Both the position numbers and the translations under genes were made by a program. DNA of 64,000 bases. Origin: a virus. Each line of letters begins with the position of its first letter. Positions within the stretch are counted from its first letter, which is position 1. Positions 20,498 through 43,176 of this stretch are shown here, in pieces. A model generated the notes under the pieces. That model saw only the letters and a list, made by a program, of their open reading frames with translations, made no database searches and was not told where the DNA came from. The stretch covers positions 21,083 through 85,082 of the IMG/VR virus record IMGVR_UViG_3300033512_000347, one strand, 5' to 3'.

Positions 20498-21217
20498 TTA
20501 TTTATTCGGAACTAACCAATATTGGCATTTTAATTCATCTTCTTTGGTAATTAATGATATTATTCCCATAGGATATACTAACATTTTTATTGATGAATTT
20601 GTATTATTATTTAATATTTCCCTAAAATTAGGTACTTTAAAAACAAACTTTGGTAAATCATTATAAATTTCAGTAGGTTGGGAAAATGTAATTTTATTTG
20701 CATATCTTTCTTGAAGACCTATAACAAATTCCAACGTATTTACTTTTTGTTTATCAACTTTAGGTTGAATAGAAAATGTTTCAATTTTTTCTAAAGCATT
20801 ATGAGCTTTAATAAACCTACTAATAAAGTCTTGATCTAATATTAATTCTATTGATGGTTCAGGCAGTGTATTAGATAATGACGCTTCGGATATTAAACCC
20901 AAATCACCTAAATTATATGATAAATCAAATTGATTATCTTTAATTTCCATCTTCATGGCTTTACCATCCTTTTCTACGATATCAATTTCGATAGGATCAT
21001 TACATATTTTAACTAATTTATATAATTGAGTTGTATCATATATACCCAATTCATTATCTTGAAGATTTACAGGAGCATTTAATTCCCCTATGCAATCTTT
21101 TAATGTAGTAGCAAAATTAATTTTAAGATTATTATTATTTATTTTCCATCTAACTTGTTCTGTTAAACCACCTAAATAATAACGCTCTATTATACTTGTC
21201 AATATTTTTTTATCCAT
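20498..21217 (-). CDS. DNA sliding clamp (T4 gp45-like)
   Basis: Size, GIYDTTQLYKL pattern, position between polB and clamp loader. Confidence 0.7.
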   Translation of the reverse strand: MDKKILTSIIERYYLGGLTEQVRWKINNNNLKINFATTLKDCIGELNAPVNLQDNELGIYDTTQLYKLVKICNDPIEIDIVEKDGKAMKMEIKDNQFDLSYNLGDLGLISEASLSNTLPEPSIELILDQDFISRFIKAHNALEKIETFSIQPKVDKQKVNTLEFVIGLQERYANKITFSQPTEIYNDLPKFVFKVPNFREILNNNTNSSIKMLVYPMGIISLITKEDELKCQYWLVPNK

Positions 21218-35449: not shown

Positions 35450-35656
35450 TTAAATAGGTATTGATGTTTTTACATAACCTCTTTCTATAGTATATTCTGA
35501 TGCTATCATTTTGCCTTTGGTAAATTCTACTTTATATACATCGTAAGCGTTTTCTAAATCAAATTCAAGATGAGGTTTTTGAATTAACCCAACTGAGTAT
35601 AAATAGTATAGAGATTTCATCATCTCTATTAATGGTGGTTTAGGGTATTTCTTCAT
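35450..35656 (-). CDS. Hypothetical protein
   Basis: ORF track. Confidence 0.45.
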   Translation of the reverse strand: MKKYPKPPLIEMMKSLYYLYSVGLIQKPHLEFDLENAYDVYKVEFTKGKMIASEYTIERGYVKTSIPI

Positions 35657-36168
35657 TATAAACTAGTATATATTGATGAGTTAGTTTTGTTTTCCCAACA
35701 ACGAACTTGTACAACTTTTACTCTACCTCCACCAGTTTTTGATAATACATCATTAAATTTATCAAAAACTATCTTAGCAGCACTTTCTGCTCCAATTTTA
35801 TCCATAATTCTTAAATGACATAATCCTAACTCTTCCATGTATTGGAATGTTTCAAGTTGTGGATCATCTTTTTCAATTAATAAAGTATGATCCCACATAT
35901 AATTCATCCAATCTTTTAAACCGTTGCCTGTTTTTTTTAATTCTTCAACAGATTCACCACCCATTGGTAATGATTTAAAACTACCATAGTCCTGTATCCA
36001 GTTCATCTCATCAAGTTGATTTTCTTCTAGTGGTTCTATTGATTCAAATATAACTTCAAATTCTAACGCATAACCATGAAGTAATTGACAATGGCTATGT
36101 TGTGCTTTCCATTGCCTAATAGCAATAGAGTAATTATCGAATAATTTTGTAGATTGATATTTTCCCAT
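35656..36168 (-). CDS. queD: 6-carboxy-5,6,7,8-tetrahydropterin synthase
   Basis: HSHC.LLHGY, WIQDYG, WDHTLL, AES.A, VRCWE. Confidence 0.92.
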   Translation of the reverse strand: MGKYQSTKLFDNYSIAIRQWKAQHSHCQLLHGYALEFEVIFESIEPLEENQLDEMNWIQDYGSFKSLPMGGESVEELKKTGNGLKDWMNYMWDHTLLIEKDDPQLETFQYMEELGLCHLRIMDKIGAESAAKIVFDKFNDVLSKTGGGRVKVVQVRCWENKTNSSIYTSL

Positions 36169-38386: not shown

Positions 38387-40081
38387 TTAACTACTGCAAA
38401 AAGTACATTCTTCATCTTCTTGTGGGGCGTTGAATACTCGCTCTTTAGGTTTTTCTAGGCCTAAAGATTGTAAAGGTGTTGATGCTGCTTGGGAACGAAG
38501 ATAATACATTCCTGTTTTTAATCCTTTTTTCCAAGCATACATATGCATTGAAGATAATTTACCCACTGTAGGTTCAGCCATCCATAAATTCATACTCTGG
38601 GATTGATCTATAAATACTCCTCTATCTGCTGCCATATCTATAATATCTTTCATCGACATTTCCCAAACCGTTTTGTATCTTTCTCTAATATCTTTTGGAA
38701 TATATTCTAACGACTGGATTGAACCTTTGTTTACAATAACATCATATTTAGTATATTCGTCCCATAATCCTATTTCTTCTAAATCTCTTACTAAATGTTT
38801 ATTAGTAGTAATAAATTCTCCAGCTAATACCCTTCTAGTACCAATATTAGATTTAAAAGGTTCAAATGCTTCATTATTACCCATAATTTGTGCTGTAGAT
38901 GCGGTTGGCATTGGCGCTACTAACAATGAGTTTCTTACTCCATATTCATATATATTTTTCCTTAAACTTGACCAAGAAATAACTAAATCCTCTAATATTT
39001 TATCAGGAGTTTCTACATCCCACAAATCTTGTTGTAATATACCTTGAGAAATTGGAGATCCTTCATAACTCTCATATTTTCCATCTTTTTCTGCTGAATC
39101 ACAAGAAGATCTTAATGCAGCATAATATAAGGTTTCAAAAATATCTTTATTTAATTGTTTAGCTTCTTCACTACTAAATGGTAATTTAAGAATAGCAAAG
39201 ACATCTGCTAAACCTTGCACTCCCCACCCCACAGGTCTATGTCTGTTATTTGAAGTTTTCGTTTCCTTTGTTGGATAAATATTTTTATCAATAACTGTAT
39301 TAAGGTTTTTAGTCCCCCTATAAACTATATTAAATAGTTTAACAAAACTAAATCTCCCTCCTTCGATACATGAAACTAAATTCACTGAAGCTAAATTACA
39401 AACAGCCTGTTCATCTGGTGATGAATATTCTATAATTTCTGTACATAAATTACTTGATTTTATTGTACCTAAATTCTTTTGGTTTGATTTTCTATTCGCT
39501 GCATCTTTGTACAACATATATGGTGTACCTGTTTCTGTTTGGGCTTCTAAAATAGCATTCCATAAATCTCTAGCTTTAATTTTTTTACCAGGCATTTTCC
39601 TATCTTCAATTGCATCTACAATTTTCATATATTCTAAATTAAATTCTTCATTATGAAGTTCATCTAATCTAGTAAAACCAGCTTTAATTTGTTCATTAGG
39701 ACAAGATAGATACCAATCACCATCTATTTCAACTTGATTCATAAACAGATCAGGAATCCATAAAGCCGGAAATAAATCTCTTGCTCTTAACTCCTCTTTC
39801 CCATGAGTTTTTCTTATATCCAAAAGAGTATAAACATCAGAATGCCAAGGTTCTAGATACATAGCAAATGAGCCTTTACGTTTATTACCACCATTATGGA
39901 CTATACCAATATTTTTAACATGGTAATTATGTATTCCATCAACATGGAGATCGTAAACTTTACCTTTGTATTGTGATTTTGAAATAGTGTTTACTTTATT
40001 AAATTTTAATTTGGATAAATCTAATCCTACTTCGTAATAATTTTCTAATTGTATTTCTTCCATATTATTCTTCATATTCAT
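38387..40081 (-). CDS. nrdA: Class Ia ribonucleotide reductase alpha, C-terminal fragment fused to C-intein
   Basis: After VHN: [42 protein letters not shown], terminal CTFC. Confidence 0.95.
39893..40081 (-). other. Split intein C-fragment (up to 63 aa)
   Basis: Block [13 protein letters not shown] and block G IVHN; next residue Gly. Confidence 0.9.
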
Positions 40082-40376
40082 TGTTTTCTTCTTTATCAGT
40101 CATAAATTCCCCATTTTTTATAAAATATCTTGAATTTTCTCTATCATCTTCATTATCTTCTAGATATTCAGTATCTACTAAATATTCAATAGCTTCTTCA
40201 GGATCAGAAATTAAATTAAATTTATTTAAATCTACTAACTCCCACATATCTTCATCTTGGAAATGAGATATATGATCCGTTACTTCTTTTTTCCATTGTT
40301 TGAAATAACTTAAGGGATTATTTACTTTGATTTCGTTTATACCTGCAAGTTCTTGCATTCGTTTTATTTCTTTCAT
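40065..40376 (-). CDS. Acidic hypothetical protein with [11 protein letters not shown]-terminal motif
   Basis: ORF track; coupled to flanking genes by overlaps. Confidence 0.65.
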
Positions 40377-40906
40377 ATTTTATTATATTTCTTTCTATTT
40401 TGTGTTCTAGTTAATATTTGTAGATTATTATAATGATGTTTACCTCCTTTAGAAAGAGGTAATTTATGATCTACTTCATGTTTTACTCCTGTCTCTAAAG
40501 TTAATCTTTTAGATTCTTTATAAAGATTTAAAATTAGTTGTTGTTCTTCTTTACTTAATGAGTTCAAATCCACTCTTTCTTTTAATCTACGTCTATTAAC
40601 TCTATTTAAATAATCTTCACTATTTTCTTTAACATAATTTCTTCTCCAAATTTGAAATTCCTCAGTTTTATACCTTTCAATTCTTTTATTTTCAAAATAA
40701 CATGGATTTAATTCATAATATTCTTTATTATACTGTGATACTCCTTTTTTATTTTGAATATTATATAGTTTCCTAGCTTCCCAACTATGACCATTTTTAA
40801 ATGAATCTTTAGGTTGTATGGAGTTAGTTATATTACAATATTTCATTCCATACAAACCTAAAGTTATATTATACTCATTTATCTCTTTTCTTGTTAATTT
40901 CTTCAC
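40373..40906 (-). CDS. HNH homing endonuclease between nrdA halves
   Basis: HEVDHKLPLSKGGKHHYNNLQILTRTQNRKK. Confidence 0.88.
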   Translation of the reverse strand: MKKLTRKEINEYNITLGLYGMKYCNITNSIQPKDSFKNGHSWEARKLYNIQNKKGVSQYNKEYYELNPCYFENKRIERYKTEEFQIWRRNYVKENSEDYLNRVNRRRLKERVDLNSLSKEEQQLILNLYKESKRLTLETGVKHEVDHKLPLSKGGKHHYNNLQILTRTQNRKKYNKI

Positions 40907-41030
40907 TATTAATATCTTTTATAATTAATTTTTCAACAAATTCTTTTAATGAAATATCATTCTCGGAAACATAAATCTTAGCTAGTTTCCAAATTTGTTC
41001 ATCTATTTGTATTTGTTTTAATTTTTTCAT
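40875..41030 (-). CDS. Small ribbon-helix-helix-like protein (51 aa, not in ORF track)
   Basis: Manual translation MKKLKQIQIDEQIWKLAKIYVSENDISLKEFVEKLI...; TATTTATA motif 5 nt upstream. Confidence 0.6.
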   Translation of the reverse strand: MKKLKQIQIDEQIWKLAKIYVSENDISLKEFVEKLIIKDINSEEINKKRDK

Positions 41031-41071: not shown

Positions 41072-42223
41072 TTAAATAGTAATAATTAAGTCATCTAATC
41101 CAACATATCTAGCTTCTACCCATTCTGGTAAAACCACTTTAGAATTTAATCTATCTTGTAATTCTTTTTCTGTAAATTTGTTTCCATCTTTAATTACATA
41201 AAATGGGTGTTTTGGAGTTACTTTTACACCATTAATTTCCATAATTTCACCTTCATAATCAGAGATCATAATCTCATGAAGAGGATAAAATTTACCATCA
41301 CTAGTAATAACTTTATGTTCTAAGGTTAAATCTTTAAATTTAACAAAACCTTGATTGGTTTCCACTTCTTGTTCTCCATCAAAACATTGATCCCAGTATC
41401 TAGCTAATTCGTTGTAAGTTCTTAAATAAGGTAAAATTCCATTGGAAGTACCATTAGTTGAATGAATTCTAGAACCTGCCGCTCTTAAATTAGATATAGA
41501 TAATCCTATACCTCCAGCAAATGAAGAAATTATAGATACATCTTTAGCAGTATCCATAATACCATCTTTACTATCTCCTTTATTATTGATTAAAAAGCAA
41601 GATGCTAATTGTTGTCCTTTTAAACCTGAATTAAATATTGTTGGTGTTGCATGAGTGTATTCCCAGTTTGATAATGATTGGTATGTTTTTAAGGCATCTT
41701 CCCAATTTGTTGTTACTGTTATAGCCTCTCTCATATACATATCTTGTGGGCGTTCTAGTATAGTATTATCTATTTTAAGTAGGTATGCTTTTTCTAAGGT
41801 TTTAAAACCAAAATAATCAAGCATGAAATCCTTTTCATAGTTTATGACCGATTGTATATTTTCAAATCCATAAGATTTAACATCTTTTATATATTGTTCG
41901 TTTAATAATCCATTTTTTTCTAAAATATTGAATACTTCTTCAAAACTACCCAATGTTTCTTTATGTAGAGCAGACATAGCAATATTAGCTGCTAATTTAC
42001 TATAATCTGGGTGATTTGTTGTCAAAGATGCAGCTGTGTCTGCTGCTAGTTTATCTAATTCTGTTGTTGTAACTCCATCATATAATCCTTGCACAACTTT
42101 CATTGATACTTCAAGATGGTTTACTTTTAATCCAGTACTAGCTTTTTTAATTCTTGTTTGAATTTTTCCAAGATCTATATTTACTAATCTTCCGTTACGT
42201 TTTTTTACTTTTAATTCTTCCAT
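41072..42223 (-). CDS. nrdA: Class Ia ribonucleotide reductase alpha, N-terminal fragment (ATP cone) fused to N-intein
   Basis: VKKRNG ATP cone, ERPQDMYMR, HATPTIFNSG, QLASCFL, GGIG, LARYWDQ then intein. Confidence 0.95.
   Translation of the reverse strand: MEELKVKKRNGRLVNIDLGKIQTRIKKASTGLKVNHLEVSMKVVQGLYDGVTTTELDKLAADTAASLTTNHPDYSKLAANIAMSALHKETLGSFEEVFNILEKNGLLNEQYIKDVKSYGFENIQSVINYEKDFMLDYFGFKTLEKAYLLKIDNTILERPQDMYMREAITVTTNWEDALKTYQSLSNWEYTHATPTIFNSGLKGQQLASCFLINNKGDSKDGIMDTAKDVSIISSFAGGIGLSISNLRAAGSRIHSTNGTSNGILPYLRTYNELARYWDQCFDGEQEVETNQGFVKFKDLTLEHKVITSDGKFYPLHEIMISDYEGEIMEINGVKVTPKHPFYVIKDGNKFTEKELQDRLNSKVVLPEWVEARYVGLDDLIITI
41075..41386 (-). other. Split intein N-fragment (104 aa)
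   Basis: Block A CFDGEQEVET, block B VTPKHPF, ends ..VGLDDLIITI-stop. Confidence 0.9.
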
Positions 42224-43176
42224 TAAAATTCTTCTCCAAAATTAATCTCACTTTTTTCGGTACCTACACCAGCTTTTCTATAATCACTTACTTTCTTTTC
42301 AAAGAAGTTAGCTTGTCCTTGTAATGCTATCATTTCCATAAAACCAAAAGGTTGTTTTACATTAAAAACTTTTTCACAACCAAAATCTGATAGTAATCTA
42401 TCTGTAACAAATTCTAAATATTGAGACATTAATTGGGAGTTCATTCCAATTAAACTCACAGGTAAACTTTCTAAAATAAATTCTTTCTCAATTTCTAATG
42501 CACTTAATAAAATTTCTTTAATTCTTTCTTGTGGAACTTTACTAACTAAATGATTATTATGTAGATGGACCGCAAAATCACAATGCATTCCTTCATCACG
42601 AGAAATTAATTCGTTTGAAAACGTTAATCCTGGCATTAATCCTCTATTTTTTAACCAAAATATTGAACAAAAACTTCCACTAAAGAAAATACCTTCTACA
42701 GCGGCAAACGCAATTAAACGTTCTGCAAATGATGGAGAATCTATCCATTTTAATGCCCAATCTGCTTTTTTCTTAATAGCAGAAAAGTATTCTATTGCTT
42801 TAAATAATTTATTTTTTTCAATTGGATCTTTTACATAAGTATCAATCAAAAGTGAATATGTTTCACTATGTATATTTTCCATCATTACTTGGAAACCATA
42901 GAAGAATTTAGCTTCTGGGTATTGGACTTCAGATAAGAAATTCTCTGCTAAGTTTTCGTTTACAATTCCATCAGAAGCTGCAAAAAATGCTAAAATATGT
43001 TTAATGAAATACTGCTCTTGTGGAGTTAATTCATCAAATCTGTCATCTTTTAAATCGATTTCTTCAGCAGTCCATATAGATGCTTGTTGTTTTTTATACA
43101 TTTCCCACAAGTCGGGATGTTTAATAGGAAAGATTACAAATCTATCCTTATTTTCTTTTAAAATTGGTTCCATCAT
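42223..43176 (-). CDS. nrdB: Class Ia ribonucleotide reductase beta
   Basis: [38 protein letters not shown]. Confidence 0.97.

Follow-up and report, generated by a model that had tools for sequence, protein, structure and literature searches.

A fractured phage ribonucleotide reductase gene with a split intein and glycine at the +1 position

Textbook protein splicing relies on Cys, Ser or Thr at the first position of the C-extein (+1), the residue that serves as nucleophile in steps 2 and 4 (PMC4031507). The stretch of viral DNA analysed here, 64,000 nucleotides long (IMG/VR record IMGVR_UViG_3300033512_000347, positions 21,083 to 85,082; hereafter the window), carries a split intein in a ribonucleotide reductase (RNR) gene whose C-terminal half is followed by glycine. 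How, then, is the interrupted enzyme completed, and is the glycine real? As set out below, the glycine is real, and the RNR is probably rejoined or matured by chemistry other than textbook splicing.

The fractured nrdA locus and its empty site

The single RNR alpha gene in the viral record, an 85-kb contig, is a class Ia nrdA split into two minus-strand ORFs, one joining the N-extein to the N-terminal intein half (IntN) and the other joining the C-terminal half (IntC) to the C-extein. The upstream ORF (41072-42223, minus strand, 383 aa) covers the ATP-cone, the all-alpha domain of RNR and barrel positions 1-72; its RNR part stops at ARYWDQ (residue 279), and Cys280 and IntN follow. The downstream ORF (38387-40081, minus strand, 564 aa) reads H62-N63/G64-G65 at the intein end (the slash marks the splice junction throughout), so that Gly+1 is Gly64, encoded by GGT at 39892-39890. 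The H-N-G-G codons described in the earlier note, CAT AAT GGT GGT, are present on the minus strand at 39898-39887. The C-extein starts inside loop 2 and carries NLCTE and the C-terminal CxxC tail. The features are as follows.

42223 to 43176, minus strand: nrdB (RNR small subunit), directly upstream, overlapping the nrdA start
41387 to 42223, minus strand: nrdA N-extein, 279 aa (PF03477, PF00317, PF02867 positions 1-72)
41072 to 41386, minus strand: IntN, 104 aa (Cys280 to Ile383) and the stop codon, with block A Cys1 and block B T-P-K-H
40875 to 41030, minus strand: 51-aa ORF, first gene of the cassette, kept in sister phages, weak PHROG matches only
40373 to 40906, minus strand: free-standing HNH/endonuclease VII-like homing endonuclease, 177 aa (PF01844, E = 1.1e-5; phrog_1035, E = 1.9e-14)
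40065 to 40376, minus strand: 103-aa acidic ORF without a family match, a variable member of the cassette
39893 to 40081, minus strand: IntC, 63 aa from the first ATG, ending in GIVHN, with block F Y-D-L and block G V-H-N
39887 to 39898, minus strand: IntC/C-extein junction, CAT AAT / GGT GGT, that is His-Asn / Gly+1-Gly+2
38387 to 39892, minus strand: nrdA C-extein, 501 aa and stop (PF02867 positions 68-523, E = 2.4e-165)

Thus the gene is fractured in the full sense, with co-oriented ORFs that each combine an extein part with an intein half and a free-standing endonuclease gene between them, and the same layout was found at L003, L088, L090, L085, L086 and L004. The order nrdB-nrdA is shared with L085, L088 and L090, and the RNR operon is intact in this context. 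The true start of IntC is probably Met7 at 40063, giving 57 aa; this start is preferred because relatives begin with MEIQEL and because it is coupled to the upstream stop as TAAT-ATG. Pfam Intein_splicing/Vint fragments (weak in IntN) lie beside the RNR domains in both ORFs, and some 180 homologues can be aligned to the junction in every column, showing together that the feature is not due to chance. An Rfam scan of the nrdA region of the window returned no intron able to alter the reading. The nearest named RNRs are those of Tenacibaculum and Cellulophaga phages, whose uninterrupted NrdA aligns from the junction onward.

The cassette itself is modular. Across the window, L003, L088 and L090 the 51-aa ORF is always there, with equal size and position, the nuclease has 177 aa (HNH) or 205 aa, and the third ORF has 103 aa in the window and 62 aa in L090 and is absent in L003 and L088. 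A PTPS/QueD-like gene lies next to the RNR genes in the window (35656-36168 and neighbouring genes) and at L003, L086 and L088, and GTP cyclohydrolase I and radical-SAM genes also adjoin the RNR genes in L086; this neighbourhood is consistent with the 7-deazaguanine cluster that the earlier note placed elsewhere in the window.

At the corresponding site human RRM1 reads RYVDQ288-G289-G290-NKRPGAF, which places the intein between the equivalents of Q288 and G289, in the stretch that forms specificity loop 2 in RNR structures. An allele of this site free of the intein was found in wastewater metagenomes (runs X7/X1; window 39719-39892). A 247-nt public contig from run X7 is about 94% identical in nucleotides to the C-extein as far as base 39892, where the Gly+1 codon begins, and the match breaks exactly there; the 30 letters past this point, in reverse complement TAC AAT GAA TTA GCA AGA TAT TGG GAT CAA, code for YNELARYWDQ in frame with the C-extein. 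The match of a 151-nt contig from run X1 likewise ends at 39892. This close relative therefore joins YWDQ directly to GGNKRKG, and the window element is an in-frame insertion in a conserved host protein for which intein-free alleles of the same site exist. The empty-site allele fixes both splice junctions and identifies the product to be restored as a Gln-Gly bond. It also rules out a shifted junction, whether through a later intein end or an extein Cys, and there is no hidden Cys, Ser or Thr. As a separate point, the empty allele implies a recent gain, or a precise loss, of the whole intein-plus-nuclease cassette.

The simplest way to dispose of the glycine would be a sequencing or assembly error, with a true +1 codon of AGT, TGT or ACT and canonical splicing. 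GGT becomes AGT by one transition, and a clade of inteins with Ser at +1 occupies the same site; no sequencing run searched contains this genome (best word share 0.20), and the contigs that could be placed on this region of the window come from intein-free or diverged relatives, none of them spanning the intein itself. However, the sister set with the same fractured gene, which comprises four independent assemblies (L003, L088 and L090, with proteins P0003-P0006 and P0040-P0045), reads CATAAT followed by GGT GGA, GGG GGT and GGT GGA, so that Gly+1 is kept through synonymous changes. The intein-free allele too reads Q-GG, and the extein sequence around the site, DQ-GGNKRKG, is of the Gly type in all of the relatives. 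The base calls, which the earlier note had wished to see verified, are thus upheld by independent sister-phage assemblies with synonymous Gly codons; the chance of an error is negligible, and base-call error is excluded as the source of Gly+1.

Glycine at +1 among loop-2 inteins

When a word index was queried with the IntC region, 38 proteins were recovered. Every one of them ends in HN/GG, and among them are split C-halves, mini-inteins (about 150 aa) and inteins with a LAGLIDADG domain (300-360 aa). Six mini-inteins and their flanks were then combined into a profile, which gave 9012 matches at E <= 1e-3 against 1.84 billion representatives. From the best 150 of these 9012 and the word-search set we delimited 140 contiguous inteins at the loop-2 site, each either a mini-intein or LAGLIDADG-bearing. 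The +1 residue is Gly in 111 of the 140, mostly as VDQ/GGGKR, and Ser in the other 29 (VNQ/SGKRN), a ratio that carries a bias, since it was Gly+1 inteins that went into the query profile. All 140 end in Asn, preceded by His in 136, Lys in three and Thr in one, and Cys1 is present in every member with a visible N-junction, including those without a match to a Cys-requiring pattern, which were checked separately. The members that lack the penultimate His (P0086, P0091, P0126 and P0162; three Lys-Asn, one Thr-Asn) are all of the Gly+1 kind. In Pfam the family matches Intein_splicing, a few members matching Hint_2 or PT-HINT, and an AlphaFold model of a contiguous member has the HINT fold (pLDDT 81) and matches many solved inteins.

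A tree of the splicing domain was built by a quick search from 140 rows and 141 columns; it is unrooted, and many of its forks are unresolved. Two changes suffice to explain the +1 state on this tree, and 28 of the 29 Ser+1 inteins form one clade amid deep Gly+1 branches. A single Ser+1 clade within such deep diversity suggests that Gly+1 is old and persistent rather than a product of recent decay. No residue around blocks F and G evidently separates Gly+1 from Ser+1 members, and hence this region gives no visible sign of adaptation to another chemistry. The window intein shares with these alleles, the CroV RIR-type family (Q/S or Q/G), both the insertion after the loop-2 Gln and a homologous splicing domain. 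Whether homologous inteins conserve Gly+1, a check proposed in the earlier note, can thus be answered: most of the members recovered at this site have it. The note's view of the locus as an isolated oddity does not hold, since the window intein belongs to a very large family.

A search of genome contigs with the family profile returned almost only uninterrupted Bacteroidota RNRs, with intein-bearing matches only at L005 and L006, and so pointed to no named cellular host; tblastn of the intein halves against named phages gave no close relative except the huge uncultured phage LR756504.1; the weaker tblastn matches were unrelated inteins of Lactococcus and Erwinia phages. In LR756504.1, a 636-kb phage (L004, 4043-4322), the same fractured nrdA is present, with IntN, a 307-aa nuclease and an IntC that ends in VHN/GGGK. 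A group I intron at L004 (RF00028, 60.4 bits, E = 8.7e-15) begins four codons past the intein junction, so that intein and intron target the same loop-2 codons. At L086 (1-2752), DNA polymerase III alpha lies just upstream of the fractured nrdA and has a weak Intein_splicing match, which suggests several inteins in one phage replication module. At L087 (1-2456), an ORF with a LAGLIDADG domain at its end precedes and overlaps the apparent split C-half P0027, which may be a frameshifted contiguous intein and not a true split allele.

Selection, predicted docking and candidate chemistry

The earlier note had described a split intein in RNR loop 2 with Cys1, the TxxH motif, the block F Asp and the terminal His-Asn intact, and all of these were found: Cys1, block B as T57-P-K-H60 (intein numbering), block F as Y-D-L (D44 of the C-ORF) and block G as V-H-N. 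The element therefore has what defines a class 1 intein, that is HINT blocks A, B, F and G, Cys1, a C-terminal Asn and a penultimate His, but it lacks Cys, Ser or Thr at +1 (Gly64), as do 111 of the 140 contiguous members. Four fractured alleles that are only about 30-50% identical within the intein all keep Cys1, T-x-x-H, Y-D-L, H-N and Gly+1, and the conservation of the motifs extends to thirteen further C-halves. The nucleases that intervene in the four alleles are of different kinds: HNH in the window, DUF7487 at L085, an EndoVII-like ORF at L086 and the 307-aa nuclease at L004.

Within the phage lineage of the window, at dS 0.5-0.9, dN/dS is 0.13-0.23 for IntN, 0.05-0.12 for IntC and 0.12-0.21 for the exteins; the window's own halves give 0.13-0.16 (IntN, against sister phages) and 0.06-0.12 (IntC). 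Both intein halves are thus under purifying selection as strong as that on the exteins. The nuclease gives 0.18-0.73, the upper value marking fast evolution in the comparison with L088. As the fracture is common to all of the compared genomes, the split gene has been maintained by selection since before their divergence.

Structure prediction suggests that the two halves associate into one splicing domain. Each of three docking runs reached an ipSAE of 0.90, whereas the best of the three controls scored 0.00, and the 0.90 mark is reached by 51 of 78 solved complexes and by 2 of 108 mismatched pairs; in part, the score may stem from solved split inteins that the model has memorised. The predicted interface involves residues 279-283 of the N-chain and residues 52-62 and 64-65 of the C-chain.

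These data are best read as an active split intein that would ligate onto Gly by a non-canonical route, with Asn cyclisation followed by aminolysis, and we give this reading about an even chance. An intein would have become established between the Gln and the Gly of specificity loop 2 in a class Ia nrdA, and a free-standing HNH cassette would later have been inserted at the intein's usual endonuclease position, leaving two ORFs. By prediction, the two halves come together in a single HINT fold, in which Cys1 would form the Gln-Cys thioester; the terminal Asn would then cyclise and free the alpha-amine of Gly+1. Because there is no side-chain nucleophile at +1, the freed amine would have to attack the thioester directly, and the outcome would be a native Gln-Gly bond and an intact NrdA of 780 aa. 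That a freed N-terminal Gly beside a thioester could act as the nucleophile is chemically reasonable, and the resolution of a sortase-type thioester by oligoglycine offers a further analogy. Ligation rather than cleavage alone is suggested by analogy with type A BIL domains, for which a route through thioester, Asn cyclisation and attack of the freed amine has been proposed (PMC4031507).

Of the alternatives, a non-catalytic zipper, in which the intein halves dock, stay attached and hold the two RNR fragments together, would account for the high-confidence predicted docking, and the interaction tails of Aeh1 NrdA are a precedent for such an arrangement. Yet a zipper could do without Cys1, without Thr and His of block B and without the terminal Asn, and these residues, with the block F Asp and the penultimate His, do not vary among split alleles that share only 30-50% identity, from which we conclude that chemistry at both intein junctions is probably under selection. 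With a zipper, moreover, loop 2 would go on carrying a HINT domain of about 160 aa at the relay between the specificity and active sites. The contiguous relatives with the same junction cannot be zippers. Their inserts of 130-700 aa have to be removed from loop 2 if the enzyme is to work. We regard the zipper as improbable. Of the two models offered in the earlier note, trans-splicing or halves that merely dock or cleave, the comparative data thus favour retained chemistry and speak against the pure zipper. A decaying element, with a dead phage RNR and ORFs that are mere remnants, is what the missing +1 nucleophile, taken alone, would predict, for it implies a splicing-dead precursor. It is, however, hard to reconcile with two intact ORFs, with dN/dS of 0.12-0.21 in the exteins and 0.05-0.23 in the intein at dS 0.5-0.9, with four lineages that share the fracture, and with the intact RNR catalytic motifs and nrdB. 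The selection estimates largely refute this reading, to which we assign only a very slight residual chance.

The more serious competitor is excision without ligation, in which the halves dock, both junctions are cut, and the exteins are held together non-covalently as an RNR nicked in loop 2. Asn cyclisation would cut the C-junction, the Cys1 thioester would be hydrolysed or thiolysed, and the intein would leave, so that the conserved Cys1 and Asn are explained without any +1 nucleophile. When canonical inteins are mutated at +1, cleavage without ligation is the general outcome. Cleavage also dominates in type A BILs (PMC4031507), and the two-chain NrdA of phage Aeh1 is fully active (PMC3045599), from which it follows that ligation is not strictly needed to explain the purifying selection on the exteins. 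The nick would, however, leave free charges on the Gln and the Gly of the specificity loop, whose sequence is unchanged, and more than 100 diverged contiguous Gly+1 inteins, recently mobile LAGLIDADG forms included, would have needed nick-tolerant hosts every time; the Aeh1 protein, for its part, is split elsewhere, between the equivalents of Cys439 and Cys462, and needs special tails. On balance we hold excision alone to be rather unlikely, a minority possibility. Ligation onto Gly, by comparison, fits a loop-2 sequence kept identical to that of uninterrupted enzymes and a Gly+1 junction that is standard in more than 100 contiguous inteins, mobile ones among them; purifying selection and the persistence of the family bear on ligation indirectly.

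What is new here is a natural split intein without a +1 nucleophile, together with its empty-site allele and selection estimates. The family to which it belongs is large, old and still mobile, and sits in an enzyme under clear purifying selection, and it breaks the rule of Cys, Ser or Thr at +1. A natural split intein that trans-splices efficiently onto Gly through Asn cyclisation and amine attack on the Cys1 thioester would add a fourth class, by mechanism, to the true inteins, with more than 100 diverged RNR loop-2 inteins as its members, and would be a scar-free tool for Gln-Gly ligation; for this stronger claim we put the chance a little short of even. If it is true, inteins of this class are spread over phages and giant viruses. 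If ligation does take place, a new splicing route exists in true inteins, and a tool for traceless ligation, with an N-terminal Gly as its sole requirement, may be within reach. If the inteins only cleave, many phage and giant-virus RNRs work with a nick in the specificity loop, which bears on RNR allostery. In either case the split form, with its two separately expressed chains, is the handiest member of the family for testing.

Comparison with known systems

The insertion point is shared with contiguous inteins of giant viruses. The RNR alpha intein of Cafeteria roenbergensis virus (CroV), an InBase entry with the junctions YVNQ/C and VHN/SGRRKG (Green et al. 2018 supplement, PMC5784728), has the same insertion point and belongs to the same intein family as the window intein, but it is contiguous and has Ser at +1. 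Ser+1 members with a CroV-like junction make up one clade of the tree; CroV itself is not among the tree rows. The Pandoravirus RNR inteins in the same supplement, with YVDQ/C at one end and GGGKRKG after the other, have Gly+1 at the same site (PMC5784728), and the junction and the start of the C-extein in P0146 and P0188 are as in these inteins. The Pandoravirus inteins are large, contiguous and from giant viruses, whereas the window intein is split and from a phage. The supplement table makes no remark on the missing nucleophile (PMC5784728), and our literature search, of incomplete coverage, found only this uncommented table entry and no paper that discusses a true intein with Gly+1.

By gene architecture the locus resembles known fractured genes in which a split intein goes together with a free-standing homing endonuclease, loci NrdA-1 to NrdA-7 among them (Dassa et al. 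2009, PMC2677866). There, too, an N-extein with IntN, one or more endonuclease genes, and IntC with the C-extein lie on one strand of a phage-type nrdA, and in the sister phages of the window the nuclease ORF runs up to the start of IntC or overlaps it. The site differs, however: it lies directly N-terminal to the thiyl-radical Cys in those NrdA loci, where +1 is Cys (PMC2677866), and in loop 2, between Gln and Gly, in the window. The nuclease is HNH/EndoVII-like in the window as opposed to GIY-YIG or Vsr-like in the loci of Dassa et al., and the window cassette holds extra small ORFs.

A split nrdA is also known from Aeromonas phage Aeh1, where mobE separates NrdA-a from NrdA-b and the two-chain enzyme is fully active (PMC3045599). 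As in the window, a phage nrdA has been split by an HNH-type homing endonuclease, and the Aeh1 enzyme is functional (PMC3045599). The Aeh1 gene, however, carries no intein, is split between the equivalents of Cys439 and Cys462, and relies on short tails and not on a HINT domain for assembly.

By chemistry the nearest systems are the BILs, the only HINT domains described without a +1 nucleophile, which mostly cleave (PMC4031507). Type A BILs lacking this nucleophile do splice, cleavage products dominating, and an artificially split BIL form is cited as ligating without nucleophilic side chains (PMC4031507). With C. thermocellum BIL4 (PDB 2LWY), a type A BIL, the window family shares the HINT fold, Cys1, the C-terminal His-Asn and a non-nucleophilic C'-flank. 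The model of the contiguous member superposes on 2LWY with a TM-score of 0.85 (by target), which Foldseek ranks sixth, among ordinary inteins, and the phmmer match to 2LWY is marginal (E = 0.042). The context sets the two apart: BILs occur in non-conserved bacterial proteins, have neither homing nucleases nor empty-site alleles and mostly cleave, whereas the window element sits in the conserved loop 2 of an RNR, is allelic with LAGLIDADG inteins and has an empty allele.
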